64,000 nt of DNA, from contig NZ_AP026867.1 in the NCBI RefSeq assembly GCF_026000115.1, positions 2,585,716 to 2,649,715 of the forward strand, read 5' to 3'. Under the pieces are notes generated by a model that was given only the letters and a program-made list of their open reading frames with translations, did not search any database and was not told the DNA's origin. The translations under genes were made by a program, and so were the position numbers. Below, piece after piece: positions 4,906-46,109 of this stretch; positions within the stretch are counted from its first letter, which is position 1; each line of letters starts with the position of its first letter. Source of the stretch: Aureispira anguillae. Its GTDB lineage: Bacteria > Bacteroidota > Bacteroidia > Chitinophagales > Saprospiraceae.

Positions 4906-4937
4906 AAAAACTTACATTTTCAAATAAAGGCAAAAAA

Positions 4938-10320: not shown

Positions 10321-10327
10321 AAACGAA

Positions 10328-10525
10328 GCACAACAAAGTGTATATTTCCATGACAGATTTCGGGAACAATCTTACAAGAATGAACGCATGAATTACACCG
10401 CAAAATCTGCGATTTTGCCACTAGTCGTAAAACAATTTACTGGCAAAATCGCAGATTTTGCTCAGGGAACAGCTATATTTATATTCGCATGACGCCTGTC
10501 ACGGAATATACACGGGCCGTTGTCC
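10328..10525 (+). other. attC-like site (long class)
   Basis: inverse core GCACAAC 8 bp after the stop; core GTTGTCC (reverse complement GGACAAC); internal palindrome caaaatctgcgattttgcc...ggcaaaatcgcagattttg. Confidence 0.6.
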
Positions 10526-12692: not shown

Positions 12693-12752
12693 GTACAACA
12701 ATGTATTGTATCGCACACTAATCTAGCACAATCATATATAATAACGTTGCCA
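12693..12752 (+). other. attC-like site (short class, about 60 bp)
   Basis: GTACAACAATGTA ... taaCGTTGCCAat; closes the four-gene cassette 10553-12685. Confidence 0.5.
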
Positions 12753-13876: not shown

Positions 13877-13947
13877 CGGTAGCCAACAAAGTGTAAAATG
13901 TTCATGCTGGCTATGTGCCAGCACGCCATTTACACGAGACCGTTACC
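13877..13947 (+). other. attC-like site (short class)
   Basis: ggtaGCCAACAAAGTGTAAaatgttcatgctggctatgtgccagc...acacgagacCGTTACCCat; internal hairpin gctggc/gccagc. Confidence 0.55.
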
Positions 13948-14824: not shown

Positions 14825-16198
14825 ATGAGTTTAATAAGACCTAGACTAAATGATTTTCATAATATCCCTATTACCCAAGAAGAAGTCGATTTTGCAATTC
14901 CTTTTTTAGATGAGGATATACCTCTTTATGTTGACCCTTTCTTATTATGGAAATCACCTTCTATGCAAGATAATTCTTTGCACCTCACGATAACAAATAG
15001 TTTTAACAATTTAGGTTACTTAGCTTCTCAGAACAAAGAAAAAGAAGCTCTTGAGATATTAATTAGAGCATCAGAATGCAATGAAGTCGGACTAGGTAAC
15101 TCTAAAACAAAAGTAGGAAAACGTATAGGGAAAAAACTAGCCAGTGATGTATTAGATCAATTTTCTACTATTCCCCAATTAAATAAAAACGGATTTATTC
15201 ACTTTGAAGAAATACAGCTATTAGTTGACAATTTTTCAAAAGACAGGGTAAGTGATATTGCATGTAATTTCATTCAATCATTTCTTGTTGATTTCACAAT
15301 CGAACAAGCTGAAAAACATGGCATTCCTATCGAACAAGTTTTATTAAAAAATATCTATAATACTAAAACTCATTCTTTTCAAGAAGAAAAAACTCATTTA
15401 CCAGTTAACCCAATAACCAAAGAACCTATTCTTCTTGTGCCCAAAAGGTGGTTAAAATATATCCCCTGGATTAATTCAGATGATTACTTCAAAAGTTATT
15501 ATTTAAAGAATATTCATAAAAAGGGGGATGCTATTCTTGACAGAGTAAAGCTTCTAAGCTTTAATAGACACAATTACGATATTGTTCAGGCATATACATC
15601 AATTAAAGAAAAGCATTTTGAAAATTGTAAGAATGATCCTCTATTTTCTCAGATACCCATTACATCTGCAAAAAGAAAAATCTCCACAATTCTAAAACTA
15701 CCAACAGGAAAGACAGATAACGCAGATCGTAAATATGAGGATAATACTTGTCAGTTCTTAACATCCTTAGTTTATCCACATTTAGATTTTGCACAAGAAC
15801 AAAGTAGAACTGAGTCAGGTGTTCAAATCAGAGATTTAATTTTTTACAATAATGCTTCTACCCCATTTTTAAAGGAAATATATAACACTTACGATTGTCG
15901 CCAAATTGTGATGGAACTAAAAAATGTGAAAGAAATTCAACAAAGTCACATTCTTCAACTAAACAGATATTTAAAAGATCAATTTGGACGATTTGGAGTT
16001 ATTATTACAAGAAATCCACCACCTAAAAAGGTTATTAAAAATATAATTGATTTATGGTCAGCCTATAGAAAATGTATTTTGGTTTTGGATGATTCAGATT
16101 TTAAAATGATGACTCAAGTATTTGAAAGTAAACAACGTGACCCAATTGAGGTAATCAAAAAAAAATATATAGAATTTACAAGAGCTTGCCCATCATAA
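14825..16198 (+). CDS. hypothetical protein (457 aa)
   Basis: long ORF, no recognisable catalytic motif. Confidence 0.45.
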   Translation: MSLIRPRLNDFHNIPITQEEVDFAIPFLDEDIPLYVDPFLLWKSPSMQDNSLHLTITNSFNNLGYLASQNKEKEALEILIRASECNEVGLGNSKTKVGKRIGKKLASDVLDQFSTIPQLNKNGFIHFEEIQLLVDNFSKDRVSDIACNFIQSFLVDFTIEQAEKHGIPIEQVLLKNIYNTKTHSFQEEKTHLPVNPITKEPILLVPKRWLKYIPWINSDDYFKSYYLKNIHKKGDAILDRVKLLSFNRHNYDIVQAYTSIKEKHFENCKNDPLFSQIPITSAKRKISTILKLPTGKTDNADRKYEDNTCQFLTSLVYPHLDFAQEQSRTESGVQIRDLIFYNNASTPFLKEIYNTYDCRQIVMELKNVKEIQQSHILQLNRYLKDQFGRFGVIITRNPPPKKVIKNIIDLWSAYRKCILVLDDSDFKMMTQVFESKQRDPIEVIKKKYIEFTRACPS

Positions 16199-16945: not shown

Positions 16946-17207
16946 TAAAACGGTAGGTAACAATATGCCAATTCCATAAAGTTAAGAGCAAAAGCTGGTC
17001 TGTAATTTGCAGAAAATCTGTTTCTAAAGCTGTCACATTTCAGGCAGGAACAATTTTAGAAGGTGCATACCAAATTTGCTATCTATAGGGATAGCACATT
17101 CCTTAGCTCTAAAATCACATATTTTCTTCCGTATCAGTGTAGGCATCCCAAGAGAAGCAACCGTTAGTTAAGAGAAAAAATATTATATTAGATAAAAACT
17201 AACGAAA

Positions 17208-17501
17208 ATGAAGAGGAGTAAATTTAGCACAGCTCAAAAAGCAAAGATATTAGCAGAGCATGACGGCGGAAAAAGTGTAACGGATTTATGCCGTCAATAC
17301 CAAATTAGTGCAGCTACGTTGTATAAATGGAAAAAGGACTATGAAGATAGTCAAGATGAAGATAAACGAAGAATAAAGGAATTAGAGGCAGAAAATGTTC
17401 GTTTAAAAAAGATGTATGCTAATTTAAGTATCGATCATGAGATACTTCAAGAAGGTTATGCAATGGTAAAAAAGTTCCAAGCCCAAAAGAACAAGAAATG
17501 A
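17208..17501 (+). CDS. IS3-family transposase OrfA (HTH, leucine zipper)
   Basis: MKRSKFSTAQKAKILAEHDGGKSVTDLCRQYQISAATLYKWKK. Confidence 0.9.
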   Translation: MKRSKFSTAQKAKILAEHDGGKSVTDLCRQYQISAATLYKWKKDYEDSQDEDKRRIKELEAENVRLKKMYANLSIDHEILQEGYAMVKKFQAQKNKK

Positions 17502-18334
17502 TATTGGATTGCTTGTCAAAAGAATACAGCATTCGTCGTACTTGTGTTGTTTTGGGCTTACGCCGTCAGACATATTATAGTCGTAAATCAGGTCATCGCC
17601 CAGAAGAAAAGGATGAAGAAATAGTGGATTTACTACATCAGTTAACAAAACGTTTTGTATCATGGGGCTTTTGGAAAATTTATCACTATTTGAGAAATCA
17701 AGGCTATGCCTATAATCATAAGAGAATTTATCGTATATGGTGTATAGAGGGTTTAAATTTACGTTTACCGCCCAAACGCAAGAGGATTTATCGAAAATAT
17801 CAACAACTTTTGGCTCCTAAAGAAGTCAACAAAGGTTGGGCTATGGATTTTCTAAGTGATTGGGTTGTTAGCCCAACTAATCATCGTATACGAATTATCA
17901 ATATTATGGATGAAGGTTCTCGCCGAGCCTTATGGACAGAAGCTCATCATAATATTTCAGCTAAAAAGCTAATAGAGGTTTTGGAGAAAGTGATAGAATA
18001 TCGTGGAAAACCATCTTATATTCGTTGTGACAATGGTCCTGAGTTTATTTCAGAAAAGCTCAAATTGTGGGCAAATAAACATGATATTGAATTGAAATTC
18101 ATCCAACCAGGAAAGCCATCTCAGAATGGTTTGATTGAGCGTTTGAATAAAACATTGAGAGCCGAATGTTTGAACTTATGCTGGTTTCAATCTCTAGAAG
18201 AATTAAATGAAGAAATACAGGTTTGGAGTCAGATTTATAATCTAGAACGACCTCATAAGAACTTAGGTAATATTACCCCAGATTCTTTTGAGATTCTAAA
18301 TCAGAAACTCTACTTTTTAGCGGTTGCTGCTTAG
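17498..18334 (+). CDS. IS3-family transposase OrfB (DDE integrase core)
   Basis: rve-domain motifs WAMDF...D, CDNGPEF, KPSQNGLIERLNKTLRAE. Confidence 0.9.
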   Translation: MILDCLSKEYSIRRTCVVLGLRRQTYYSRKSGHRPEEKDEEIVDLLHQLTKRFVSWGFWKIYHYLRNQGYAYNHKRIYRIWCIEGLNLRLPPKRKRIYRKYQQLLAPKEVNKGWAMDFLSDWVVSPTNHRIRIINIMDEGSRRALWTEAHHNISAKKLIEVLEKVIEYRGKPSYIRCDNGPEFISEKLKLWANKHDIELKFIQPGKPSQNGLIERLNKTLRAECLNLCWFQSLEELNEEIQVWSQIYNLERPHKNLGNITPDSFEILNQKLYFLAVAA

Positions 18335-18560
18335 GGGAAGCCTACATCAGGCACTCGAATTCCAGTTCCATCAATCGCCAATAGTCGGTATCCTTTCCAA
18401 TATTTTATTCCTCGATTGCTTCGATAAAAAAGTTGGCAACTATAAGAAAATAAGTCTTCAAAAAAACAAACCTTAATCTTTGAACGAGCTAAGGCTAATG
18501 CTGTCTTTGTTGGTGGGCACCTTGATCTAAATAGTCTTGAGTGGGAGATTAATTCGGCGT

Positions 18561-18755
18561 TTACACTTTTTTTAAAAGACCTAATATCAATCCTACCGTT
18601 GTTGCAAAATCTAATTTGCGATGTCTTGTAAAATCTTGTTCTGGGCGAATCAAATAGGTCGCCCGTTTTTGGGCTGTTAAACTCGCCAAAATTATAAATA
18701 ATTTTAGCTTCTTTAATTGTGCTGTTAAGCTTAGTAGTTTTTTGTCACGTTTCAT
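18561..18755 (-). pseudogene. N-terminal fragment of IS4/IS5-superfamily transposase
   Basis: 64-aa ORF near-identical to 31565..31759. Confidence 0.6.
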
Positions 18756-19095
18756 CCCCTAAATATATGTTTTTTCTGACTACTTTCCTTAACTTTATGG
18801 CAGTGAACAAGAAATATACGTCAATCCCACATCTTGGGCTAAAGCTAAAGTTCATTCGTATGTAACACTACGCAAAATCGCAGATTTTGCTAGTACTCGA
18901 AGAAAAAATTACTAGCAAAATCTGCGATTTTGCTTTGGGATTAGCTATATTCCTATTCGTATAACTTGTGGCACTGCGTATATCAAGACGTTGTCATCAA
19001 TTCAAAGAAAAATCATTACGCAAATACACTGCGCAGCAACTTTTTAACTTTGAGTCTCAGTAAAAAATCTAATCTAGGACTTAAAAATAAAAACT

Positions 19096-20079: not shown

Positions 20080-20272
20080 TAACAACAATCTGCATATAGC
20101 CATCCAGAGCACTCTGTAACGCCCAATTCAGGGGCTTTGTCCAAGCGCAAAATCGCAGATTTTGCCAGTACTCTGAACGAAATTTACTGCCAAAATCTAC
20201 GATTTTGCTTATCTGTAACGCACACTTTTCGTATTTTGCTCTTTCTGCACGGTATATGCAGTAACGTTGGCA
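20078..20272 (+). other. attC-like site (long class)
   Basis: GATAACAACAATCTG ... gcaaaatcgcagattttgcc ... ggcaaaatctacgattttgc ... acGTTGGCAtcaat. Confidence 0.6.
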
Positions 20273-21772: not shown

Positions 21773-22687
21773 TTGAATATGCAACACTTCAAAACATTAA
21801 GTGAATTTCTCGCATACATAAAATTTCCTGCACCAGAACACCCCATGTTCAGCATAATATCTACCAAAGATGGAGGCTACCTTCCTTGTCCAAAGGAAAG
21901 CTCTCCGCCTATCAGTAATGAATGTTACTCTATTAGTTTAAAAAAAGTGTTATTAGGAGAGGTTAACTATGGTAGAACTAAATATGATTTCAACAACGGT
22001 GCAATGGTTTTTATGTCCCCAAGGCAAGTCATGCAATGGGATAAAGTTATTATTGACCAAAAAGGATTGGTCATCACATTCCATGAAGATTTTATAAGAG
22101 GCACTATCTTAGAGAGACAAATCAAAAAATACGGTTTCTTTTCCTATACTACTAACGAAGCCCTACACCTTTCACCCAAAGAAGAAAAACTGATTGAATC
22201 CATTTTTGATAATATTGAAATGGAGTATCACAACAATCAGGATAAGTTTAGCAAAGACATTATCATTGCTCAATTGGGAACATTGCTAAAATACGCAGAC
22301 CGCTTTTATGAACGACAATTTATCAACAGGAAAGAACTTTCGGGTAGTCTATTAGAAAAGTTCACCAATGAGATTAGAAGCTATTTTGAATCTGATAAAT
22401 TACAAGAATTAGGTATTCCAACGATAGAAGCATTAGCTGATAGTTTATCTGTTTCTCAACGTTATTTAAGCGACACACTTAAAAAGGAAACAGGAAAAAC
22501 AGCCATAGAACATATTCATTTGTACCTAATTGATGAAGCCAAAAATATTCTATTACAACCAAATAAAACAATTTCACAAATAGCTTATGAATTGGGATTT
22601 GAATACCCTCAATATTTTTCGAGATTGTTTAAGAAAAGAGTAGGAGTTAGCCCTTCACATTACAGAAACAAATTTATGTTGAATTGA
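21773..22687 (+). CDS. AraC family transcriptional regulator
   Basis: C-terminal HTH_AraC (ISQIAYELGFEYPQYFSRLFKKRVGVSPSHYR); paralog of 60897..61832. Confidence 0.8.
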   Translation: MNMQHFKTLSEFLAYIKFPAPEHPMFSIISTKDGGYLPCPKESSPPISNECYSISLKKVLLGEVNYGRTKYDFNNGAMVFMSPRQVMQWDKVIIDQKGLVITFHEDFIRGTILERQIKKYGFFSYTTNEALHLSPKEEKLIESIFDNIEMEYHNNQDKFSKDIIIAQLGTLLKYADRFYERQFINRKELSGSLLEKFTNEIRSYFESDKLQELGIPTIEALADSLSVSQRYLSDTLKKETGKTAIEHIHLYLIDEAKNILLQPNKTISQIAYELGFEYPQYFSRLFKKRVGVSPSHYRNKFMLN

Positions 22688-22699: not shown

Positions 22700-22767
22700 T
22701 GCCAACAAAGGCTAAAATGTCAATAGCCTCCATCCGTCGGCTACTGCATTTAGCCGGGCCGTTAGGT
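22700..22767 (+). other. attC-like site (short class)
   Basis: TGCCAACAAAGGCtaaaatgtcaatagcc...ggctactgcatttagccgggcCGTTAGGTggcat; core GTTAGGT, reverse complement ACCTAAC. Confidence 0.55.
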
Positions 22768-24830: not shown

Positions 24831-25024
24831 CTTAACAAGAAATATACGTCAATCCCACATCTTGGGCTAAAGCTAAAGTTCATTCGTATGTAACACTACG
24901 CAAAATCGCAGATTTTGCTAGTACTCGAAGAAAAAATTACTAGCAAAATCTGCGATTTTGCTTTGGGATTAGCTATATTCCTATTCGTATAACTTGTGGC
25001 ACTGCGTATATCAAGACGTTATAG
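24831..25024 (+). other. attC-like site (long class)
   Basis: CTTAACAAgaaatatacg...gcaaaatcgcagattttgctagtactcgaagaaaaaattactagcaaaatctgcgattttgc...gcgtatatcaagacGTTATAG; near-identical to 18811-18996. Confidence 0.65.
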
Positions 25025-25052: not shown

Positions 25053-25829
25053 ATGGACGAATTCAATAGAACAGAGGTATTCTACTCAATAGTTAACAAT
25101 GACTATGATAAATTTATGAAAGAGCTTGAATTCTTGACAGATATAAATATGGTTGATATAAACGGAATGTCTTTACTCCATTTCTGTGGTGAATATTCAA
25201 ACCTAAAATTTGCTAAAAATCTAATTGAAAAAGGTATCAACGTTGACCTAAAAGATAATTATGGGAATAATGCTTTATGGAAAGCTACATTTAATTCAAG
25301 AGGAAATTATGAATTGGTCGAATTACTAATTGAAAATGAATCTAACCCAAATTCTAAAAATAATGCCAATAAATCACCATTGGACTTAGCACTTAGTTTT
25401 GGAGACGAAAGACTAATCGGATTGCTTAGCGAACCAGAATATAAATACCATGCAGACTGGGAACAATTGGCTGATTTGTTCAATTACAAAATAGACCGAC
25501 ACGACCAAGATTGGACTTATACAATTTCAGAACCTGAAAGAATCGAGGATTACCTAGATGCTTATACAAATATTGAGAATATAGAAGCAAAATATTCTCT
25601 ACTTGAAATGATAATTCAATCCGTTAATGACCAAACTGACAAAGAATTTGATAAGTATTGGAATCGATTAGTTCCATTTCTTGATATTGATTTCGAATTA
25701 AACAAACCAACTATCTATTATTGGTGTGATTGGATGAATGATAATCTGGAAAACTGTTTCGAGGTTAGTGATAAGATGAGAAAATATTGGATTAGTAAAA
25801 TAAAAGAAAAATGCTATAACAATGTATAA
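25053..25829 (+). CDS. ankyrin-repeat protein
   Basis: start taken as MDEF; ANK repeats GMSLLHFCGEYSNLKFAKNLIEKGINVDLKDNYGNNALWKA. Confidence 0.7.
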   Translation: MDEFNRTEVFYSIVNNDYDKFMKELEFLTDINMVDINGMSLLHFCGEYSNLKFAKNLIEKGINVDLKDNYGNNALWKATFNSRGNYELVELLIENESNPNSKNNANKSPLDLALSFGDERLIGLLSEPEYKYHADWEQLADLFNYKIDRHDQDWTYTISEPERIEDYLDAYTNIENIEAKYSLLEMIIQSVNDQTDKEFDKYWNRLVPFLDIDFELNKPTIYYWCDWMNDNLENCFEVSDKMRKYWISKIKEKCYNNV

Positions 25830-25881
25830 CAAATCACAGCCGCCTATCGGCAGGCTACGCTTGTTATACGAGCCGTTGGCG
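25815..25881 (+). other. attC-like site (short class)
   Basis: stop codon inside ATAACAATGTATAA; ...cagccgcctatcggcaggctacg...agcCGTTGGCGgtcatt. Confidence 0.5.
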
Positions 25882-25953
25882 GTCATTAAAACCCAATCTA
25901 AGGATTTAGAAATTAAACATCTTACTTAATAAAAACAAAAAATAGAAAACAAA

Positions 25954-26925
25954 ATGAGAATAGCTTTTTATGGTTCATCTTCTCCAATTTTTTATGATTA
26001 TTCCAAACCAAATGCACAACTCAGCTCGCAAGGGTTATTGCCCAATCCTATTCTTGATAGTGCATGGGGAACTATGATATTATTTGATGAGCTTTGGTTT
26101 TTAGCTGAAGAACTGTGTCCTAAGAACTTAAAATCATTACCTTATATTAAATTTTTGACTAATGAAATAGATTTCAATCATTTAAAAGATTTGAATACTA
26201 ATGCTATTTGGGAAAACTTAGGAAAAGAAAAACAAAAATATTTTGAGCAAAAGAAATTAAACGAAAGCTTGGGGCAATATCAAGAAGTTGTTGATTCATT
26301 AGGAAGCACATGGGAAATATCTCCAGATCACCACTCAAGAGATTTTCACGTTGGTGATTTAAAATTTATGGGAAGCTCTGTTCAAGCAGAAAATGTTGTA
26401 CAAGATTTAGCTATCGTTGAATTTCTAAAACTTCACCTAAAAAAAGATATTCAACTAATTACTAACTCTTTCACCCAAAATTGGCTCGAAAGCCCTGATT
26501 CCATTTTGTCTCAAACAAAACTAACCGAGTTATTAACGATTGAAGGCATACCTAATTATCTAAATCAGGATGGTCCATATCATGAAATAATTGAAACTTT
26601 AAGAGAAGATCAATATCTTAAAAGGTATAGAGAATGGATAATAGAGCAAAAGATTAACTATAACCTGTCTGAATTAAAAGATGTCAAGGAAGAAATAGAA
26701 AACTCTATAAATAAATTCCAAAGAGAATTAATGCTAAAGTACTTAGATCCTAAATCAACTTATAAAAGTATTGGCAAATCTATTATTGGAGCTGGTTCAA
26801 ACTTAATTATCCCTGGTATTTCTGCAATGGTATCGATAGCAGGTGATGTAAAAGAGGGAATTCAAAAAAAGGATTTAATGTGGCAAGGTTTCATTATTTC
26901 TTCAAAAAACAAACTAAACAGATAA
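25954..26925 (+). CDS. hypothetical protein (323 aa)
   Basis: single-gene cassette. Confidence 0.45.
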   Translation: MRIAFYGSSSPIFYDYSKPNAQLSSQGLLPNPILDSAWGTMILFDELWFLAEELCPKNLKSLPYIKFLTNEIDFNHLKDLNTNAIWENLGKEKQKYFEQKKLNESLGQYQEVVDSLGSTWEISPDHHSRDFHVGDLKFMGSSVQAENVVQDLAIVEFLKLHLKKDIQLITNSFTQNWLESPDSILSQTKLTELLTIEGIPNYLNQDGPYHEIIETLREDQYLKRYREWIIEQKINYNLSELKDVKEEIENSINKFQRELMLKYLDPKSTYKSIGKSIIGAGSNLIIPGISAMVSIAGDVKEGIQKKDLMWQGFIISSKNKLNR

Positions 26926-26933
26926 AAAACGAC

Positions 26934-27131
26934 CGCCAACAATGTGTAACATATGACCATTCTAGGTGTAGGGCTAAAGCTAAAGTCTCGGCGTATGTGA
27001 GACGCCGCAAAATCGTAGATTTTGCTAGTAGCTTGAAGCCAGATTACTAGCAAAGTCTACGATTTTGCTTTGGGATTGGCTATATTCAGTACGCATAGCC
27101 TCTAGCACAGGCATATACACTAGACGTTAGG
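26934..27131 (+). other. attC-like site (long class; near-canonical cores)
   Basis: CGCCAACAATGTGTAacatatg...cgcaaaatcgtagattttgctagt...actagcaaagtctacgattttgc...gcatatacactagacGTTAGGCacaat. Confidence 0.7.
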
Positions 27132-27221
27132 CACAATTTTAAAATCTCTGGCTCAAGATTCAAGAAGTTCTTAGGAAATCAATATATTACTTATCATTAT
27201 ATTTCTTACTAAATCGAAAAA

Positions 27222-28067
27222 ATGGAAGAATTAACGATTATTAGTCTAGAATTAGAAAGTTTAATCGAAAAAATAGAATTCTATAAATCATCAGGAAAAG
27301 TTTTTGATTCATGGGACGTCTATAATCATGTTGACATGCCTAAAAACTTTGAGAGCAAGACTTATGGTCCTCTCTTTACCACATATAATGATATCGTTAG
27401 TCGACTAAAAGGTTATGATAAAAAAACATTTTCAAGCTTAAAAAAACTTAAACTTTCTCCACCTTTACTAAGAGAAGATGTAGATAACAATTATAATCAT
27501 TATGACTACTATCTTTACACTTCTGAGCATTTGATAGAAATTCTTTTTGAAACAAAAAAAGCAAAAAAAATCCTTGATAAATTTCTGAATTCAAAAGAAA
27601 AAATAAGTACTCAGCAAGGAGTTGAATTTGTTGCAGAAGATAGTTTAAATTCGGCTATTATTGGAATAATAAAAGAAGCAAGAAGTTTCATCACATTGAT
27701 AGCACCTTATATCAAATTACACGAAAGAATAAAAGATGCATTACTACTAAAGTTAAAAGTTCCTGCATTATCCTTAGTTGTTGTGTTCGGCAAAAACGAA
27801 CAAGACAAGTCTAAAAGTCTAAGTACATCAGATAAAACTTTTTTAAATAAATTTCCCAAACTAAGCTTGTATTACAAAAACAGATTACACGCTAAATGCT
27901 ATTTCAATGAAAAAGAAGTTTTATTAACCTCTATGAACTTATATGATTATTCTCAAAATAACAATATTGAGTTCGGAGTTTTGATAAAAAAAGAGATAAA
28001 CCCCAGTCTTTATGATGAAGTAATAACTTATTTTAAAGATGTAATAGAGAATAGTATAAAACAATAA
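27222..28067 (+). CDS. PLD/HKD-like domain protein (putative Nuc-family nuclease)
   Basis: C-terminal RLHAKCYFNEKEVLLTSMNL approximates HxK(x)4D(x)6GSxN with D to E and G to T substitutions. Confidence 0.4.
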   Translation: MEELTIISLELESLIEKIEFYKSSGKVFDSWDVYNHVDMPKNFESKTYGPLFTTYNDIVSRLKGYDKKTFSSLKKLKLSPPLLREDVDNNYNHYDYYLYTSEHLIEILFETKKAKKILDKFLNSKEKISTQQGVEFVAEDSLNSAIIGIIKEARSFITLIAPYIKLHERIKDALLLKLKVPALSLVVVFGKNEQDKSKSLSTSDKTFLNKFPKLSLYYKNRLHAKCYFNEKEVLLTSMNLYDYSQNNNIEFGVLIKKEINPSLYDEVITYFKDVIENSIKQ

Positions 28068-28134: not shown

Positions 28135-28920
28135 ATGTTAAGAATAGAAAAAACTCAACTAAATATTAGTGCTTTAATCACAATGTCTTCTGGATTAAAA
28201 AAGCTTCAATCTAACACAATTACAGAAATGATGGATAAAGGAGAAAAAGCAGGACAAGTGATAATTACTAGAGAAAAAAGGGAAAATGAAAAAACAGATC
28301 TGCAATTAAGCCTAGAGTTACTAAATAAACTTTTTTTTAGTCTTGTTGGAGGTCCTCCTAGCCCACTTATTCTAAGTGGCGATGAAGAAAGATATCTCAG
28401 AAATTGTTCTTATGCTTATTACTACTATAAGACTGAAGAAGCCGAAATTTCTCCCCTAGATGTTTTTGGTGTATTTCACAAAACGCATTTCAACACACCA
28501 CCGCCAAATGAGTTACATAAAGAATTTCCAAAGATGCTTTTATCCACTTTCGGTCTAAATCCCGAATTATCTCAAGCATTCAATAAATACCAACAAACAT
28601 CACCAATTGCCTTACCCTCTCCAAAGTCTTTTAATCATGTATTTCAAACACTAAAGACTGAATTCGTCAATAATGAAATAAAATTAGTATTGGAAGCAAC
28701 CAATCTTGAAATGACGAAAAGTATAGACTCCTTATTTGCATTAAAAGATTTGTTATTTTGTTGTGAGTTTGATACAAGTTCAATTCTTGAACATCATGAA
28801 TTTTCAAAAATAAGTGGACAAAAAGACACATATAACTGGGGTGCTAAAAATGGGATAAAGCCATCTATAGAGTTTGATTACGATTACCTGAAAGTAGATG
28901 TAACAAAAAACTGTGCCTAA
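28135..28920 (+). CDS. hypothetical protein (261 aa), co-cassette with PLD-like gene
   Basis: ORF immediately followed by attC inverse core. Confidence 0.4.
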   Translation: MLRIEKTQLNISALITMSSGLKKLQSNTITEMMDKGEKAGQVIITREKRENEKTDLQLSLELLNKLFFSLVGGPPSPLILSGDEERYLRNCSYAYYYYKTEEAEISPLDVFGVFHKTHFNTPPPNELHKEFPKMLLSTFGLNPELSQAFNKYQQTSPIALPSPKSFNHVFQTLKTEFVNNEIKLVLEATNLEMTKSIDSLFALKDLLFCCEFDTSSILEHHEFSKISGQKDTYNWGAKNGIKPSIEFDYDYLKVDVTKNCA

Positions 28921-29135
28921 CAATCTGTCAATTCCATAAAGTTAAGAGCAAAAGCTGGTCTGTAATTTGCGGAAAATCTGTTTCTAAAGCTGTCACATTT
29001 CAGGCAGGAACAATTTTAGAAGGTGCATACCAAATTTGCTATCTATAGGGACAGCATATTCCTGAGCTCTAAAATTACATTTCTTTTTAGAGCTTGATTA
29101 TTAATTGTATTCCAATGCTTTATAAGCTACCTATA

Positions 29136-30105
29136 CTAAAAGGCTGGCTTGTAGTTTTTTTCTGTCATATACCGTTCATTCAATCTCATTTGCTTGCGTG
29201 TTCTTTTTGTTGGTGGTCGTATTCGGACGCTTTCATAATAGCGTTTTATTAGGTTAATCGCAGCTTTAACATATACTCCTTGATGCTCTGAAAGCAACAA
29301 ATCAAACCAATCTTTTTTCACTATAGTAATTGCTATATTTCTATTTATTTGACCCTTCAGTTTTTGTCCATTCAATTCTTTTTCTGCTACATGAATAAAC
29401 ATCGAGCGAATATTGTAAAAGATCAACACCGACCATAAATCCTGTAAAACAAATTGGGCTTTGTAACCTGAAAATACACCTAATTTTAGTTGATTTTTAA
29501 GCTCATCAAAAGCTGTTTCCTCTCCCCACCTTTTAGAATATAAATCTTTAAATTCTTCTCTGCTAAACTTATTCTTATCCAATAAATTCGTTGCTAAAAC
29601 CTCGGTTGTTCCATTCGGTAATTCTACTCGAAGTAACCTTATTTTGAAGGTTGAAAATTTTGGATGCTTATTTTTTAAGCCATACTTATCTCTTGCTGAA
29701 TAATAAGCTCTTTCACCTAACCGAAATTCTACTATGCTATCAGTATCTCCACTTTTTAAAAAATTTTCTACTGCTTTTATTCCCTTTATTTTCATTCTTA
29801 TCAAGCAGGGCTTTCTCGATTTTAAGTGGCGGTCTAATAGTAAACTATCGCAATAATGGCGATCATAGATCATGATTGAGTTGCTAGGAAGAATTTCAAA
29901 TTTTTGATGAAGGGCAACCAACTCTGCTACTGATCTTGGATGTAAATGCACATGATAGAATACTCGATTCAATACATCATGTATCGCTAATATCTTGCAG
30001 GCTGCTATTGCTCCATATTGGTTCTTGTGAACACCTATTAAGCATCTATTTTCTTCCGTATCAGGCACTCGAATTCCAATTCCATCAATCGCCAATAGTT
30101 GGTAT
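29136..30105 (-). pseudogene. IS4/IS5-superfamily DDE transposase, 5' part severed by IS3-B insertion
   Basis: the N-terminal MGYTS residues of the tracked ORF come from the IS3-B terminus; DDE_Tnp_1 YREK signature present. Confidence 0.65.
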
Positions 30106-30141
30106 TGAGGTATTGAGGTGTACCCCATTTATAGGACCAGT

Positions 30142-31050
30142 TTAAGCTGATTTTAAATTTATTAGATATTTTTCTTCCAAAATCTCCTCACAGAAATTTT
30201 GGGAGGTTTTGGAAGGGGAATATCGGTCACAAGGACGTTCATCGTCAATCCCCATGTGTCTTCTTTCCCAGTTATATTTGTTAAAATACTTTTTCATTCC
30301 TGTATGCAATGCACTTCCATCCAAATACTCTCGAATATAAGCATCTTCGTATTTCACAGACCACCATAATCGTTCAATAAACACATTATCGATACAGCGC
30401 CCTTTTCCATCCATGCTAAATTTAATTCCATAATCTTTGGTAACACATTTGACAAATTCTTTTGATGTAAATTGACTTCCTTGATCCGTATTCAAAATCT
30501 CTGGCTTCCCATATCTTTCTATCCCTTCTTCTAATGTATTTTTGCACCATAGGGCATCCATCGTATTCGATATTGACCAAGACACTACAAATCGACTATA
30601 AAGGTCAATGACAGCAGTTAAATATAGAAAACCCTTTGGCATAGGAATATAAGTAATATCCATTGCCCAGACTTGGTTAGGTCGTTCTATTTTTAAGCCT
30701 CTCAGTAGATAAGGAAAAACTTGATGGTCTTCTCCTTTTCCTGGTTTTGACGTCTGTGGTCCTGGTAAAATGGATCGCAAGCCCATTACAGAATAATACA
30801 ATCGATTAATACGCTTTCGATTCACCTTAAAACCTTTATCCGCCGTCAACCATAAATGCATGGCACGAGCTCCTTTATAGGGATGCTTTAGGTAATGTTC
30901 ATCCATTAATCGCATCAACTCCATATTTAATTCGCTCTCTTCTTTTGGTTGATAATAAATACCAGAGCGATGAATACCTATCAACTTGCATTGACGGCGA
31001 ACACTCAAAATTGGGTGATTAGAATTAATATGTTGACGTTTCTCGGACAA
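30142..31050 (-). CDS. IS3-family transposase OrfB
   Basis: rve DDE core (WAMDITYIP, TDQGSQFTS, IERLWWSVKYE). Confidence 0.9.
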   Translation of the reverse strand: MSEKRQHINSNHPILSVRRQCKLIGIHRSGIYYQPKEESELNMELMRLMDEHYLKHPYKGARAMHLWLTADKGFKVNRKRINRLYYSVMGLRSILPGPQTSKPGKGEDHQVFPYLLRGLKIERPNQVWAMDITYIPMPKGFLYLTAVIDLYSRFVVSWSISNTMDALWCKNTLEEGIERYGKPEILNTDQGSQFTSKEFVKCVTKDYGIKFSMDGKGRCIDNVFIERLWWSVKYEDAYIREYLDGSALHTGMKKYFNKYNWERRHMGIDDERPCDRYSPSKTSQNFCEEILEEKYLINLKSA

Positions 31051-31055
31051 GGGCT

Positions 31056-31334
31056 TTATTTCAACACTTTTTTTAAAAAGTCATTCTCGACTTTTAGCTT
31101 ACCTATAGTCTGTAAAAGTTTGTCTTTTTCCTTCTCCTCCTCGGTCTGCTTAGAAGTTGGTTTTTCAAATATGTCTTCTGCTCCTTCCAAAAATTGTTTC
31201 TTCCAAGTACGAATTTGTGTTGGTGCAAGCTCATATTTTTGAGCTAACTCTGATAAAGTAGATTGCTCTTTTAGAGCCTCTAATACTACTTCTGTTTTGA
31301 ACTTTGCTGTGAATTTTCTTTTCTTCATAATCAC
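31056..31334 (-). CDS. IS3-family transposase OrfA
   Basis: HTH then leucine zipper (MKKRKFTAKFKTEVVLEALKEQSTLSELAQKYELAPTQIRTWKK). Confidence 0.9.
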   Translation of the reverse strand: MIMKKRKFTAKFKTEVVLEALKEQSTLSELAQKYELAPTQIRTWKKQFLEGAEDIFEKPTSKQTEEEKEKDKLLQTIGKLKVENDFLKKVLK

Positions 31335-31564
31335 TAATTTAAGCTTTTTTTCCGAACTTAACTAGTGGTCCTATTTTTGGGGTATACCGTAGTATCCTTT
31401 CCAATATTTTATTCCTCGATTGCTTCGATAAAAAAGTTGGCAACTATAAGAAAATAAGTCTTCAAAAAAACAAACCTTAATCTTTAAACGAGCTAAGGCT
31501 AATGCTGTCTTTGTTGGTGGGCATCTTGATCTAAATAGTCTTGAGTGGGAGATTAATTCAGCGT

Positions 31565-31759
31565 TTACACTTTTTTTAAAAGACCTAATATCAATCCTAC
31601 CGTTGTTGCAAAATCTAATTTGTGATGTCTTGTAAAATCTTGTTCTGGGCGAATCAAATAGGTCGCCCGTTTTTGGGCTGTTAAACTCGCTAAAATTATA
31701 AATAATTTTAGCCTCTTTAATTGTGCTGTTAAGCTTAGTAGTTTTTTGTCACGTTTCAT
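31565..31759 (-). pseudogene. N-terminal fragment of the IS4/IS5-superfamily transposase
   Basis: MKRDKKLLSLTAQLKRLKLF...; separated from the transposase body by a stop and by the IS3-B insertion. Confidence 0.55.
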
Positions 31760-31985
31760 CCTCTAAATATATGTTTTTTCTGACTACTTTCCTTAACTTT
31801 ATGGCAGTGAACAATGTGTATGCAGCAATACTAGATTTCGGGCTAAAGCTAAATATTCGTCTTTTGCCTAGCACCGCAAAATCGCAGATTTTGCTCTAAG
31901 GAATAGCTATATTTAAGTTCGCATAGCTTCTAGTTCTGTACATACACGCACGTTAGCTCTCATTAAAAAAAAGAAAAACCCAAAT

Positions 31986-33719
31986 ATGGCAAATACAAAA
32001 ATCAAAGCCTTTTTCAACAGTCGATACTTCGAGATTCCAAAATATCAAAGAGGATACGCTTGGGAAAAGAAGAATATTAGAGAATTGTTTGAAGATATTG
32101 AAGAAGCGATAGAGGTAAAAGCAAGTCACTATATTGGAACAATTGTTCTATCAAAAACGGAAAAAGGAGAAGATGTTTTTTATGTAGTTGACGGACAACA
32201 AAGAATTACAACAACTACAATGATAATCAATGAATTGGTTAAACATTTAGATGCGGACGATTCAAGTTTTTACAAAAGATTTTATATTAATCGAGGAGAA
32301 AGATTTAGATTATTACCATTGGGAAAAGAAAAAGACTTTTTTAAAGAGTTACTAACTAATGGTGAATCTGATTTGATACCCGTAAATAGAAGCCAACGAC
32401 TTCTGATTGAAGCTTACCAAGAAATTCAAGGAAAAGTTTCGCAAATTGTTAAAGAGAAAAGCGCCTTAGATTATCTCGAACAAATAGAAAATTTGCAGAT
32501 AATGGAATTTGTTGAAGATAGCGAAGGTGATGCAATACGAATTTTTCAAACTGTCAACGATAGAGGAAAACCGTTGACAAATATGGAGAAAGCAAAAAGT
32601 CTTTTAGTATATTTTTCAAATCGGTATTTGGTAAGAAAACTTGATAAAGATATTAATGACAAGTTTGGGCAGATGTTTGAAATATATGACCAAATAAAGC
32701 ATGTAGGAACAAAAAATAGTATTGATTTGATTTCAGGGAGATACGGAGAGTTCAATGAAGACAATATAATGCGATACCATTTTGTAACTTTCAGTAATGA
32801 AGATTACGACCCAACAGCAAGTTATGTACTGGGCTTTCTAAAAAGGAAACTTAAAGAGTTCCGAAAAAGCAAAACATCAAAAGAGCAAATAGAGAACTTC
32901 ATCAACTCTTATGTGAATAGTTTACTATCATTTTTTACCTGCCTCAATAAGTTGGTTCAAAAGACGGAAATTAATGAAAAGTACTTTAAAATATTTTCGA
33001 TTTTAGGCTTATCTGCAACCTTATATCCTGTAATTGCAAAATTTGAAGAATTCGGGATTCTCGACACTTCACTTGAAGGAGAAGAACTTGAATCTTATAA
33101 TTTTCTTGATTTAATTGAATTGATTGATGTTAGAGTTTATAAGGTAAGAGGAACTGACCCCAAAGCAGATATTGGCAGGTTTTCATATCAAATAGCCAAT
33201 GAAAAATGGGATAATGCAGATATGGAAAACTGGTTAGTTTGGTTCAACGAGCGTTGGATGCCAGAAGATGAATTTAGAAATAATTTGTACAGCTCAATTT
33301 ATAAAAGAAGTCGAGCTGTATTACCACATATACTTTTAGATTATTCAGAAACTATAAGTGATACTAAATTGACTATCGAAGAATTAAAAGATTTTGTAAA
33401 GAAGAAGGCTTTTAGCATTGAGCATATTTTATCACAGAAACCGAAGTTTACTTTAAAAACACATGGGTTTAAAAGTACGGAAGAATATCTTGAATTTGAG
33501 CATACAATTGGAAACCTAACTTTGCTTGAAAAGTCATTAAATAGTAGTGTCAATAACAAAAATGTTTATGACAAGATAGATTATTATGATAGAAGTATTT
33601 TCAGAATTACCAAAGAGTTGGCAACCGAAATAACTCATAACAATCAATTCAAAAAAGAAGATATTGAAAATCGTACAGAGAAAATGGTTGAATTTCTAAT
33701 TGAAAAATGGTGGTGTTAA
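31986..33719 (+). CDS. GmrSD-like type IV restriction enzyme (DUF262 + DUF1524)
   Basis: N-terminal DUF262 hallmark YVVDGQQRITT; C-terminal DUF1524/HNH-like FSIEHILSQ ... GNLTLLEKSLNSSVNNKN. Confidence 0.7.
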   Translation: MANTKIKAFFNSRYFEIPKYQRGYAWEKKNIRELFEDIEEAIEVKASHYIGTIVLSKTEKGEDVFYVVDGQQRITTTTMIINELVKHLDADDSSFYKRFYINRGERFRLLPLGKEKDFFKELLTNGESDLIPVNRSQRLLIEAYQEIQGKVSQIVKEKSALDYLEQIENLQIMEFVEDSEGDAIRIFQTVNDRGKPLTNMEKAKSLLVYFSNRYLVRKLDKDINDKFGQMFEIYDQIKHVGTKNSIDLISGRYGEFNEDNIMRYHFVTFSNEDYDPTASYVLGFLKRKLKEFRKSKTSKEQIENFINSYVNSLLSFFTCLNKLVQKTEINEKYFKIFSILGLSATLYPVIAKFEEFGILDTSLEGEELESYNFLDLIELIDVRVYKVRGTDPKADIGRFSYQIANEKWDNADMENWLVWFNERWMPEDEFRNNLYSSIYKRSRAVLPHILLDYSETISDTKLTIEELKDFVKKKAFSIEHILSQKPKFTLKTHGFKSTEEYLEFEHTIGNLTLLEKSLNSSVNNKNVYDKIDYYDRSIFRITKELATEITHNNQFKKEDIENRTEKMVEFLIEKWWC

Positions 33720-33769: not shown

Positions 33770-34315
33770 ATGAATCTAAATGAACTAAATACGACAGAAT
33801 TAATTCAAGCGTATTCTGGAATAATTAAACAGTTAAAAAAACGCAAAGTTATTCGGACTAAAAATCTCTTAGGTGATTTAGGAGAATATTTGGCGATAGA
33901 ACATTTTAATAAAACTGCTGGAATGTCAAATCTTCAAGCTGCTCCAGCAGGAACTCAAAAGATTGATGCAATTAGTAGAAACGGAGACCGATATAGTATT
34001 AAATCTACAACTGGAAATTTAACAGGAGTATTTTACGGACTTGAACCACCAAATTCCGAGAATATTGACAGGCAAAAATTTGAATATGTTCTAATCGTCA
34101 AATTTGACAATGACTATCAACTTGAAAAAATAATTCAACTTGACTGGAATTTGTTTCATAAATATAAACGTTGGCACAAAACAATGAATGCTTGGAATAT
34201 ATCTATTACAAAATCATTGACAGACGAAGCAAAAGTGCTTTACGAAAGAATACCCGAAAAGGCTTACGACATATCTGAAATTAGAAAAACTCACAAACAA
34301 GCATATGAACCCTAG
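33770..34315 (+). CDS. hypothetical protein (181 aa)
   Basis: ORF between GmrSD-like gene and attC. Confidence 0.4.
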   Translation: MNLNELNTTELIQAYSGIIKQLKKRKVIRTKNLLGDLGEYLAIEHFNKTAGMSNLQAAPAGTQKIDAISRNGDRYSIKSTTGNLTGVFYGLEPPNSENIDRQKFEYVLIVKFDNDYQLEKIIQLDWNLFHKYKRWHKTMNAWNISITKSLTDEAKVLYERIPEKAYDISEIRKTHKQAYEP

Positions 34316-34454: not shown

Positions 34455-34519
34455 GCTAACAACATGTATAAGTAATGCTCGCTCAACCGCTCGCACTACT
34501 CATACACTCACCGTTAGGC
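34455..34519 (+). other. attC-like site (short class; near-canonical cores)
   Basis: GCTAACAACATGTATAAgtaatgctcgctcaaccgctcgcactactcatacactcacCGTTAGGCaccatt. Confidence 0.65.
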
Positions 34520-35911: not shown

Positions 35912-36692
35912 GCCTAATAATGTGTCAATTCCATAAAGTTAAGAGTAAAAGCTGGTCTGTAATTTGCAGAAAATCTGTTTCTAAAGCTGTCACATTTCAG
36001 GCAGGAACAATTTTAGAAGGTGCATACCAAATTTGCTATCTATAGGGATAGCACATTCCTGAGCTCTAAAATCACATATTTTCTTCCGTATCAGGCACTC
36101 GAATTCCAGTTCCATCAATCGCCAATAGTTGGTATCCTTTCCAATATTTTATCCCTCGATTGCTTCGATAAAAAAGTTGGCAACTATAAGAAAATAAGTC
36201 TTCAAAAAAACAAACCTTAATCTTTGAACGAGCTAAGGATAATGCTGTCTTTGTTGGTGGGCATCTTGATCTAAACAGTCTTGAGTGGGAGATTAATTCA
36301 GCGTTTACACTTTTTTTAAAAGACCTATATCAATCCTACCGTTGTTGCAAAATCTAATTTGCGATGTCTTGTAAAATCTTGTTCTGGGCGAATCAAATAG
36401 GTCGCCCGTTTTTGGGCTGTTAAGCTTAGTAGTTTTTTGTCACGTTTCATCCTCTAAATATATGTTTTTTCTGACTACTTCCCTTAACTTTATGGCAGTG
36501 AACAATATGCATATGGTCATGGGGAGTATACAGAACCGCCTAACAGCATCCTCTGCCCCAGAAGTCACAAAATCACAGATTTTGCTAGTGCCTGAAGCTA
36601 AATTACTATCAAAATCTGCGATTTTGCTTGGGGAATAGCTATATTTAGTATCGCATATCTTGTGGCACAGGCATATACACAAACCGTTATGG
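35912..36692 (+). other. attC-like site disrupted by IS4-like deletion derivative
   Basis: GCCTAATAA at 35912-35920; remainder at 36506-36692 (tatgcatatgg ... caaaatcacagattttgctagt ... atcaaaatctgcgattttgc ... gcatatacacaaacCGTTATGGgcaag). Confidence 0.55.
35921..36505 (-). mobile_element. IS4/IS5-superfamily element, internal-deletion derivative (585 bp)
   Basis: same two ends as the full copy; junction ...ttcttccgtatcag|gcactcgaattcc joins the left end to the transposase 5' region. Confidence 0.6.
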
Positions 36693-37283: not shown

Positions 37284-37412
37284 TATAACAACGGCTAAAA
37301 AGCATACGGGTATATGCTGCGTTTCATTAATTATAGTTGGAAAACTATACCTAACTTTAAAAGAAAATCTTGGTTGAAAGTCCGTACGACTTCCTAGCCT
37401 TGAACGTTATCA
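37284..37412 (+). other. attC-like site (intermediate length)
   Basis: CTATAACAACGGC 7 bp after stop ... gcatacgggtatatgc ... tgaaCGTTATCAgtc. Confidence 0.4.
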
Positions 37413-38437: not shown

Positions 38438-38629
38438 GATAACAATCTGCAATAGCCATCCAGAGCACTATGTAACACCTAATTCAAGGGTTTTGTCCAA
38501 GCGCAAAATCACAGATTTTGCTAGTGCTTGAAGAAAAAATACTAGCAAAATCTATGCTTTTGCTCTAGGGTTGGTGCCATATTTCTTATCTTACTTCTCC
38601 CCCACATGCATATGCACAAACATTGTGGG
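38438..38629 (+). other. attC-like site (long class), core mutated to ATTGTGG
   Basis: GATAACAATCTGCAATAGCCATCCAGAGCAC (same head as 20078-20110) ... gcaaaatcacagattttgctagt ... actagcaaaatctatgcttttgc ... catatgcacaaacATTGTGGgtaat. Confidence 0.55.
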
Positions 38630-40152: not shown

Positions 40153-40220
40153 GCACACACAAAGGCTAAAATGTTCATAGCGGCTATGCGCCGCTACGCC
40201 ATTTAGCCAGACCGTTCTGC
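40153..40220 (+). other. attC-like site (short class) closing an ORF-less cassette
   Basis: gcacacacaaaggctaaaatgttcatagcggctatgcgccgctacgccatttagccagacCGTTCTGCat; paralogous to sites at 13877 and 22700. Confidence 0.55.
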
Positions 40221-42276: not shown

Positions 42277-42429
42277 GTCATAACAATGTCTATAATCCAT
42301 GCTAGATTTTCGTCGGATGCTCTACAACTCGTGGCATGACTAACACTGCAAAATCTGTGATTTTGCTCAATTGCAACACCATTATTTCGTATTTTACTCT
42401 TCCATACATTATATACAATAATGTTGTCA
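42277..42429 (+). other. attC-like site
   Basis: GTCATAACAATGTCTATAATCCATGC ... ctgcaaaatctgtgattttgc ... tacaataatGTTGTCAacaat. Confidence 0.5.
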
Positions 42430-42545
42430 ACAATTAAAGGTTAACACTCAAAATAGTGACAGAAAATCCATAAAACACCAAAAAAATGTAACAACAAGTT
42501 TCTAAATCCGTTCCATAGCTCTTTAAGTAACTAAAAATATATTAT

Positions 42546-43004
42546 ATGAAAAGAACAGTACAAAGTGCTGTAGTTTGTGGAACCACAATGACAGTGTTAA
42601 ACATTTTAAATCAACTATTTTTCAACCCCAAAGAAAAATTTGATTTCGAAGAATTATTTGAATGTACTTTAATTGGAGCTGGAATTGGGGCTACGGTAGG
42701 AGTTACGATTGATACCGTGGAATATTTATCTAAAAATGATGAAAAATCAGAACTTTCACTTCCTGATAAAGTTTGGAATAAAGGGGACAAAGTTTGGTAT
42801 TTAGATTCTAATGTTTGGAGAAAAGATAAGTATGGAAATACTATTAAATATTCTGAATACGGTAACAGAAAATCCGATTATGGCTGGGAAAAGGACCATT
42901 CAAAACCTAAATCAAAAGGTGGTAAAGATCATCTAAATAATTTCCAACCATTACAATGGAAAGAGAATCTAAAAAAAAGTAATAAATATCCATATAAGAA
43001 ATAA
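42546..43004 (+). CDS. small HNH-endonuclease-motif protein with N-terminal hydrophobic/Gly-zipper region
   Basis: YGWEKDHSKPKSKGGKDHLNNFQPLQWKENLKKSNK fits the HNH pattern WExDHxxPxSxGGxD ... N ... N. Confidence 0.5.
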   Translation: MKRTVQSAVVCGTTMTVLNILNQLFFNPKEKFDFEELFECTLIGAGIGATVGVTIDTVEYLSKNDEKSELSLPDKVWNKGDKVWYLDSNVWRKDKYGNTIKYSEYGNRKSDYGWEKDHSKPKSKGGKDHLNNFQPLQWKENLKKSNKYPYKK

Positions 43005-43022
43005 GTAATTAAATAGATGCTA

Positions 43023-43055
43023 AAGATCTCAGATCAACAATAGATCTGAGATCTT
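43023..43055. terminator. perfect 13-bp-arm palindrome (hairpin) after HNH gene
   Basis: aagatctcagatc-aacaata-gatctgagatctt. Confidence 0.4.
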
Positions 43056-43482
43056 GAAATAGGATACTTAAAAGTTGAAGACACGGAATAGTAAAAACTT
43101 CATGCAATGTATGGACTGCAAGTGAGAAGGACTTTGGTTGATAATTTTGGATTGAAACAAACTATGCAAAACTGAAAATAAAACGCCTAAGCAAATTTTA
43201 TACAACAATGAATTATTGCACGAATACAGAAAACAAAGAGCACCAAGAATTGGCTTACAAAATCTAATTTACAGCATTTAACGAATGCTGGTGGAATTTA
43301 TGGCGAAAGGCTTTGCTGTCGTTCAAAGAAAACTCTCGGTTATGATTTATTTCTCATTCAAAAACAATAGTGCTTTTGATCCAGATTTTCATAAAATTCA
43401 AGCAATTAAACATAATCTGAAATAACAACAACAGCACATGATATGCAATAACGTTGTAGTGCATTCCTAAACAAAGAAAATA

Positions 43483-44310: not shown

Positions 44311-44382
44311 AAAATCTAAAAAATTGTTACTTTTACAGTAAAACAAAACCACTAAATAAAATCAGATTTTTAATCAAAAACC

Positions 44383-46104: not shown

Positions 46105-46109
46105 AGCCC

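Follow-up and report, generated by a model that had tools for sequence, protein, structure and literature searches.

The stretch of DNA analysed here (the window, 64,000 nt) most likely belongs to the chromosome of Aureispira anguillae (Saprospiraceae, Bacteroidota), since a 64-aa product encoded at 5926-6120 is recorded from that chromosome; type IX secretion system (T9SS) and Fib_succ_major domains among the proteins of the window are consistent with Bacteroidota. Over more than 57 kb, from a first boundary at position 7005 to at least position 63737, genes and the repeated sites between them lie on the + strand. One of these sites had been proposed, in an earlier sequence-only reading of the window, to be a long integron-type attC site at 26934-27131. 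The site proved to be real, extending from an AAC core at 26938 to a GTT core ending at 27128 (191 nt), with a centre of the form GCAAAATCGTAGATTTTGC-tagt...acta-GCAAAGTCTACGATTTTGC and a bottom-strand DNA fold of -36.4 kcal/mol (z = -4.9 compared with shuffled controls).

In the window we mapped eight sites carrying two inverted copies of a 19-mer (165-191 nt), two carrying only one copy (144-145 nt), one of 122 nt that lacks it, seven short sites (52-60 nt) and at least eight decayed copies. The earlier count of at least nine sites of 190-200 bp is about right when the flanks of the R box are included, and the two sites reported as nearly identical, starting at 18806 and 24834, share 96-99% of their positions. 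As for the proposed short class of 60-70 bp, five sites (13885, 22704, 25818, 34458 and 40157) score 61-79 bits with a covariance model trained on the same five, while the one placed at 12693 (mapped here at 12697, 52 nt) folds poorly and was recognised by its position 11 nt past a stop codon and a partial flank complementarity only. The same model independently found the site at 55493, outside its training set, and did not recover the long sites, because of their 130-nt insertion. The 122-nt attC at 37287 had been missed by the earlier reading. On the features of the sequence set out below, we estimate at about 85% the probability that these repeats are integron-type attC sites dividing gene cassettes in a large chromosomal array.

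Position, orientation and cassette junctions

Ten of the sites start 4 to 16 nt past a + strand stop codon, with a further two overlapping the 3' end of the open reading frame (ORF) before them; the four attC heads interrupted by insertion sequences (ISs) range from an overlap to 16 nt past a stop. No site in the window was found inside a credible ORF. A profile search carried out with the element at 26938 returned matches in the + orientation only, the minus-strand matches covering just the self-complementary core, and a heuristic scan for AACAA...GTT duplexes gave 16 strong matches on the + strand versus two on the - strand.

Each site opens with xxxxxxAAC-AA and closes with C-GTTxxxxxx, and the flanks of consecutive sites correspond to each other. 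Specifically, the complementarity between the 7 nt following GTT and the 7 nt preceding the next AAC amounts to 5.39/7 for consecutive sites versus 2.29/7 for other pairings, a value reached in none of 200,000 permutations (0/200,000), and the corresponding figures in independent metagenome arrays are 6.09/7 and 2.58/7. Several junctions are perfect over 10 nt, as in GTTGGCGGTC / GACCGCCAAC. In addition, R-box pairing exceeds the canonical 7 bp, reading ACG-N6-AAC ... GTT-N6-CAT at cassette junctions (for example 25877-25886 / 26929-26940), and this extension contains a conserved T.G wobble on the bottom strand, corresponding to a C.A mismatch on the top strand. Two flanks would be complementary because both belong to one cassette, moved as a circle cut between G and TT; the observed pattern thus has the appearance of a footprint of cassette excision and insertion at that point. 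We know of no repeat type besides integron cassettes that predicts complementarity of successive flanks. By analogy with established integron biology, an IntI-type tyrosine recombinase, encoded outside the window, would bind the folded bottom strand and cut it between G and TT, and the cassettes would move as circles.

At the left end of the array, the unique boundary GTTGTGCTTC at 7005, with its G and TT at 7005-7007 and three TGTATA direct repeats before it, matches perfectly the reverse-complemented R'' flank of the 10332 attC, and nothing else in positions 1-10400 does so. The region 6950-7011 is a candidate attI-like or decayed attC region. A sigma-70 promoter scan upstream of the first cassette gave nothing above chance, with a model that does not cover Bacteroidota promoters.

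Folding, covariation and the tip palindrome

The long class was studied with nhmmer profiles and RNAalifold alignments, using 60 copies taken from the window, from metagenome-assembled genomes (MAGs) and from metagenomes. Both AAC and GTT are present in 14 of the 18 window sites, the remaining four having one mutated core (ATT at 38441 and 55493, CAC at 40157, GCA at 54898). In the 60 copies the commonest base reaches a frequency of 0.99 in the R box, 0.78 in the L box, 0.61-0.63 in the remaining stem and 0.96-0.97 in the four 8-nt arms of the 19-mers. A consensus structure derived from a 12-sequence alignment pairs 93% of the cells, compared to 33-46% in slid-partner controls, and 15 of its pairs show compensatory double changes, compared to 7.4 in shuffles. 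The larger set of 60 copies revealed covariation in the L box (UA:35/CG:23, UA:39/CG:15, GC:46/AU:11), in the tip stem and between the centre triplets of the two 19-mers (GC:25, AU:17, GU:13, UA:3). Because these triplets covary, the two 19-mers appear to pair with each other in one long hairpin; in the attC at 10332-10521 they are swapped (TGC...GCA) with respect to the other copies.

Regarding the strand, G.T exceeds A.C among the paired cells of the long class when the bottom strand is considered (44 vs 9), three G.T pairs being fixed or nearly fixed, and the bottom strand is the stabler one in 15 of the 18 sites (Wilcoxon p = 0.0013); five short sites showed no strand bias in folding. The folding models thus identify the bottom strand as the folded strand. 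In energy-model folds of 58 copies the first internal loop is asymmetric, mostly 3 nt versus 2 nt, and the next irregularity after the L box is a bulge on the 3' arm in 28 cases versus two on the 5' arm. The resulting bottom-strand layout starts with an R box in which AACG pairs with TGTT (4 bp), extended by the cassette flanks to about 12 bp. Next come a short spacer, unpaired and asymmetric, and the L box, which covaries and spans about 9 bp; one base is then bulged out on the 3' arm, and beyond it lies a variable stem, 3-4 times longer in the long class than in the short one. An unpaired central spacer, extrahelical bases and a variable terminal structure are known features of attC sites (PMC8946536), and every sequence-level hallmark of such sites open to test here is present. 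In conclusion, cores, L boxes, spacer and bulge, strand bias, orientation, position past stop codons and flank complementarity support the attC assignment. The sequence-only reading had named alignment confined to the palindrome, copies inside genes and copies in both orientations as observations that would speak against it; the alignment reaches well beyond the palindrome, no site lies within a gene and a single orientation was found.

Sites of the long class (144-191 nt) have at their hairpin tip a near-invariant palindrome, GCAAAATC-NNN-GATTTTGC, present singly or as an inverted pair. This 19-mer (GCAAAATCGCAGATTTTGC) has 29 matches in the window at no more than three mismatches versus 0.01 expected, all inside long sites. 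The single form consists of an 8-bp stem closed by a loop of 3 nt. In the double form there is, in addition, an inverted duplication of 43 nt, and the inverted pair zips into a duplex of 19-24 bp. Considering that the arms of the 19-mers are conserved at 0.96-0.97 and the remaining stem at 0.61-0.63, the tip is constrained in its sequence and not for pairing alone. According to published work, recombination under replicative conditions is reduced by long variable stems, which also keep cruciforms from being extruded (PMC8946536). Since long stems hamper both processes, a perfect palindrome at the tip could act as a nucleus for folding in a hairpin that is otherwise very long and imperfect, or could bind an accessory, dimeric protein.

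A scan of the genome collection with the single 19-mer returned, among the matches listed, mostly unrelated palindromes and other repeat families. Among these matches the 19-mer GCAAAATC-NNN-GATTTTGC is embedded in intergenic repeat families that are multi-copy, unrelated and found in distant phyla, namely in Oscillospiraceae MAGs (L011, L026, L031 and others), Methanovirga (L003, L009 and others), Saccharibacteria (L016, L034 and others) and Treponema (L006, L083). In Cellulophaga it forms a terminator after the apparent 3' end of a tRNA gene. This recurrence in other phyla may be due to chance among very many AT-rich hairpins.

Insertion sequences, recombinase remnants and cassette cargo

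The coordinates of the mapped features are collected in Table 1. In addition to these, at 58805-59402 a convincing attC head (GTGCACAAC-AAAGTGC) is separated by about 600 nt from a convincing tail (CTCAC-GTT-GTACGC); the two may represent an attC split by an insertion. The stretch 42425-53384 contains several minus-strand genes (with products of 215 aa and, carrying WG repeats, 957 aa), a copy of IS3 and, as far as attC sites are concerned, remnants only (43427-43455, 52527-52656). Either DNA other than cassettes was inserted here, or this part of the array may be strongly decayed.

Table 1. Sites, insertion sequences and recombinase remnants mapped in the window (R'' and R', opening and closing cores)
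Feature	Position	Strand	Remarks
Recombinase C-terminal remnant, Bacteroidetes-type tyrosine recombinase	5926-6120	-	64-65 aa; 5'-truncated; left of first boundary
Second, shorter recombinase remnant	6857-6946	-	5'-truncated; left of first boundary
First cassette boundary; candidate attI-like or decayed attC region	6950-7011	+	flank match and TGTATA repeats
Long attC	10332-10521	+	190 nt; two 19-mers; bottom-strand fold -41.8 kcal/mol, z = -6.8
Short attC, weak	12697-12748	+	52 nt; folds poorly (about -2 kcal/mol)
Short attC	13885-13944	+	60 nt; 78.8 bits
attC head (first 10 nt)	16959-16968	+	cut by IS4-family copy A
IS4-family copy A	16969-18805	+	interior replaced by IS3-type element (ORFs 17208-17501, 17498-18334)
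Long attC	18806-18992	+	187 nt; first 10 nt = duplicated target of IS copy A
Long attC	20084-20268	+	185 nt; two 19-mers
Short attC	22704-22763	+	60 nt; 76.7 bits
Long attC	24834-25020	+	187 nt; two 19-mers
Short attC	25818-25877	+	60 nt; 64.5 bits; both flanks perfectly complementary to flanks of neighbour sites
Long attC (first proposed site)	26938-27128	+	191 nt, AAC..GTT; two inverted 19-mers at 27007-27025 and 27050-27068; R box extends to 26929-27137; starts 12 nt past stop of ORF 25954-26925
attC head	28919-28928	+	cut by IS4-family copy B; R'' flank GTGCCTAAC matches R' flank of 27128
IS4-family copy B	28929-31809	-	transposase 29136-30128 plus N-terminal part ~31400-31760
Long attC	31810-31954	+	145 nt; single 19-mer
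Short attC	34458-34515	+	58 nt; 61.5 bits
attC head	35916-35925	+	before IS4-family copy C
IS4-family copy C	35926-36500	-	internally deleted
Long attC	36501-36688	+	188 nt; two 19-mers
Intermediate attC	37287-37408	+	122 nt; no 19-mer; flank complementarity 5/7 with preceding and 7/7 with following site
Long attC	38441-38624	+	184 nt; two 19-mers; R' = ATT, not GTT
Short attC	40157-40216	+	60 nt; R'' = CAC, not AAC; 76 bits
Long attC	42282-42425	+	144 nt; single 19-mer
Long attC, decayed	52527-52656	+	one degenerate 19-mer; R' = ATT
attC head and decayed attC body	53384-53393 and 53700-~53825	+	flank IS4-family copy D
IS4-family copy D	53394-53699	-	deleted remnant
Long attC	54898-55062	+	165 nt; two 19-mers; R'' decayed to GCA
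Short attC	55493-55551	+	59 nt; R' = ATT; 18.4 bits, E = 0.002
Long attC, decayed	56575-56763 (start approximate)	+	degenerate 19-mer
Long attC, decayed	63600-63737 (start approximate)	+	near window end

An IS4-family element is present in four copies. All have the same orientation, interrupt an attC just past its position 10 and are accompanied by a 10-bp target duplication, according to the arrangement AACAATNTGT-IS-AACAATNTGT. One copy is near-complete and three are deleted or invaded. The element has terminal repeats CAATTCCATAAAGTTAAG / CTTAACTTTATGGCAGTG, with terminal inverted repeats of 18-20 bp, and a DDE transposase matching NF033592 (120.6 bits vs a cutoff of 115); in copy B the transposase is split by an IS3 copy nested within it at 30111-31395. 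The target duplications are permuted between copies, the left one of A being equal to the right one of C (AACAATATGC) and the left one of B to the right one of D (AACAATCTGT). This permutation suggests that cassette blocks were reshuffled by recombination between IS copies, in a comparison where attC heads are alike and chance matches are possible. Similarly to the attC-targeting IS1111-attC elements and group IIC-attC introns (PMC11187229, PMC3001079), the element occupies a fixed position in the attC in one orientation. Unlike IS1111-attC, which relies on an RNA-guided DEDD transposase, it encodes a DDE transposase and is bordered by a 10-bp duplication, and unlike the introns, which retrohome into their targets (PMC3001079, PMC11187229), it is an IS of the IS4 family. 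As regards other ISs, two IS3-family copies, at 30111-31395 (-) and 45765-47049 (+), are 99.9% identical, and a third, different IS3-type element lies at about 17150-18340 (+).

The only PF00589 match in the window is a remnant of about 65 aa, the C-terminal part of a different integrase subfamily (PF00589 positions 112-171). The coding sequences of the two recombinase remnants form a 56-nt direct repeat, 82% identical (5941-5996 / 6893-6948), which flanks the ORF 6186-6770. Full-length relatives of the remnant (about 390 aa) carry Arm-DNA-bind_5, Phage_int_SAM_5 and Phage_integrase domains; the presence of the first two indicates that this family is not IntI. It is multi-copy in Aureispira genomes, with at least five paralogues in A. 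anguillae. On two other contigs, L142 (24-1465) and L190 (10001-11406), an attC of the family described here starts 0-3 nt past the terminator hairpin of such an integrase gene, and on L024 (1444-5319) a full-length integrase lies 2.5 kb from a long attC. An att-like sequence in the 3' flanks of the integrase genes was considered and rejected, the shared element being the terminator hairpin.

Among the cargo genes, candidate anti-phage cassettes are found at 14825-16198, 27222-28067, 31986-33719 and 33770-34315, and the defence candidates comprise PDC-M36A (full-length, 812 bits), a PLD/DrmC-like protein, a GmrSD/HEC-06 nuclease and a type II methyl-directed restriction enzyme. Defence genes in the cassettes of sedentary integrons have been reported (bioRxiv 10.1101/2024.07.02.601686). 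Other cargo includes a class C-type beta-lactamase fold and AraC regulators. Two AraC-family paralogues lie far apart, at 21773-22687 and 60897-61832, and share a repeat (22457-22654 / 61602-61799) with 73% DNA identity.

Alternative explanations and the place of the array among integrons

Several observations weigh against the interpretation as an integron-type array. No integron integrase was found in the 64-kb window by Pfam scans of essentially all ORFs of at least 75 aa, and a motif scan detected no canonical IntI on any related AT-rich contig, only the Bacteroidetes-type family. Many of the presumed cassettes reach a large size of 1-3.5 kb, with several ORFs each, compared to the single-gene cassettes that are typical, and the 11-kb stretch 42425-53384 carries minus-strand genes and few attC sites. 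Finally, mutated cores (ATT, CAC, GCA) occur in several sites, for which reason mobility has probably been lost in part of the array.

In an alternative view, the sites are attC-like and are served not by a canonical integron integrase but by the arm-binding Bacteroidetes-type integrase, with the 19-mer as its arm-type or accessory site. That integrase is the only tyrosine recombinase family seen beside this attC family: an attC abuts the integrase terminator on L142 and L190, a long attC lies 2.5 kb from an integrase on L024, and in the window the first boundary of the array has integrase remnants 59 nt and about 0.9 kb to its left. The multiple copies of this arm-binding family in Aureispira genomes, and 19-mer arms conserved in sequence beyond the need of pairing, point in the same direction. 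However, six other loci with the same integrase family (L122, L123, L189 and L191-L193) are without an attC of the family, and on L190-L193 the integrase sits at the end of an apparently ordinary integrated element with excisionase-like HTH_17 genes. Moreover, the short-class sites share the R and L boxes yet are without the 19-mer; the bulged base, the bottom-strand bias and the GTT core are features that the IntI-specific domain is known to read, and the window copies of the integrase are 5'-truncated remnants only. We therefore consider this view unlikely, and the functional link of the arm-binding integrase to the arrays a low-probability lead. Were it true, cassettes would be captured by a second kind of recombinase, a heterobivalent arm-binding integrase, in a phylum regarded as nearly integron-free.

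A different proposal would accept the sites as ordinary attC and regard the palindrome as a selfish or hitch-hiking insert in an ancestral attC loop, conserved owing to recent spread or gene conversion. It would account for the coexistence of one- and two-19-mer versions, the double being the single plus the 43-nt inverted duplication, for a 122-nt attC and short attCs that use the same boxes without the 19-mer, and for the 19-mer found, among the matches listed, in unrelated repeat families of Oscillospiraceae, Methanovirga, Saccharibacteria and Treponema. Arms conserved at 0.96-0.97 in 60 copies, between flanking spacers at 0.61-0.63 and next to an L box free to covary, are nevertheless unlike a neutral passenger; the covariation of the centre triplets between the 19-mers indicates selection on pairing, and the 19-mer never occurs outside an attC in the window. 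A passenger origin is, in our judgement, very improbable. Lower still do we rate the idea that the repeats are not recombination sites at all, and are instead intergenic palindromic repeats, such as REP/BIME-like elements (repetitive extragenic palindromes, bacterial interspersed mosaic elements) or miniature inverted-repeat transposable elements (MITEs), or transcription terminators. The sites are indeed intergenic hairpins placed past stop codons, and an Rfam search returned nothing at gathering thresholds and no attC family, yielding at permissive E-values only weak generic hairpin matches (microRNA precursor) to the palindrome. Such an identity is hardly credible in view of the complementarity of successive flanks, which only excision and insertion between G and TT explains, in the window and in independent arrays; in addition, no T-run follows the stem, no terminal inverted repeats with target duplications are present and the orientation is strictly uniform.

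The reading as integron-type attC sites is also compatible with the general features of integrons. Known attC sites are usually about 57-141 nt long. The sites described here resemble them in their AAC...GTT cores, covarying L boxes, unpaired spacer, bottom-strand bulged base and variable terminal stem, in their location at the 3' end of promoterless-looking genes in one orientation, and in forming an array of more than 19 sites with cargo that is mostly unknown or defence-type. They depart from them in the length of the two-19-mer sites, up to 184-191 nt, and in the island of sequence conservation at the hairpin tip. At the level of the array, the differences are the many multi-gene cassettes (1-3.5 kb), the absence of intI within at least 7 kb of the first boundary, and a Bacteroidota host, for which one complete integron has been reported.

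Vibrio cholerae repeats (VCRs) are about 123-129 nt long and highly similar over their whole length. The Aureispira array, unlike VCRs, mixes at least three length classes, and near-invariance in its sites is limited to the 19-mer palindrome and the R box. Once R box, L box and 19-mers are set aside, pairwise identity among the long sites of the window is 49-73%, except for one 96% pair, so that the VCR-like homogeneity suggested by the sequence-only reading does not hold. Its further suggestion of a single cognate integrase is not demonstrable from a window containing no integron integrase. Like VCRs and other species-specific attC families (PMC13638679, PMC8352920), the sites are lineage-associated, with a long imperfect stem and many copies per array, and related genomes carry the same attC family.

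Full-length members of the long family were found in a Saprospiraceae MAG, in Aureispira MAGs, on a low-GC contig binned as Clostridium and on about 35 AT-rich, mostly marine metagenome contigs, with 64 copies in all; among the genome-collection matches listed, the family members are L024, L054, L061, L062 and L099 only. This distribution, restricted to Aureispira/Saprospiraceae MAGs and AT-rich, mostly marine metagenome contigs, agrees with the lineage specificity proposed earlier. All 15 of the 15 multi-copy loci have their copies in one orientation, including eight copies in 8.7 kb on L133, and in another Aureispira MAG a short-class site lies beside a long one. A scan of viral contigs with the double 19-mer gave no matches.

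As to its classification, an array counts as sedentary-size when it has more than 10 (or more than 19) attC sites, and as a CALIN when it is a cluster of attC sites without a neighbouring integrase (PMC4889954, PMC9024848). The window holds about 20 intact and at least eight decayed attC sites over 57 kb with no adjacent integrase, and a complete integron, with an integrase beside the array, was not found within the 64 kb. The array is best filed as a sedentary-size CALIN, the integrase being elsewhere or lost. A survey with IntegronFinder 2.0 recorded one complete integron in Bacteroidetes, that of Salinibacter ruber (PMC9024848), published taxon-specific attC models omit Bacteroidetes/Bacteroidota (PMC8352920), and our literature search found no paper mentioning Aureispira together with integrons. 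What is new is the host lineage, the length of the sites, their conserved tip module and the IS4-type parasite that targets them; the class of mechanism is canonical.

In conclusion, the data depict what is probably a sedentary-size cassette array in the chromosome of a Saprospiraceae species, in a phylum surveyed as nearly integron-free (PMC9024848). Sites of about 190 nt, with a tip palindrome conserved like the cleavage box, stretch the known design space of attC, and the palindrome is a candidate folding nucleator or protein-binding site. The defence-gene cargo is of practical interest for the mining of cassettes and defence systems. Furthermore, since arrays of this attC family also occur on dozens of contigs from marine metagenomes, cassette shuffling seems to be active in an abundant marine lineage of Bacteroidota.

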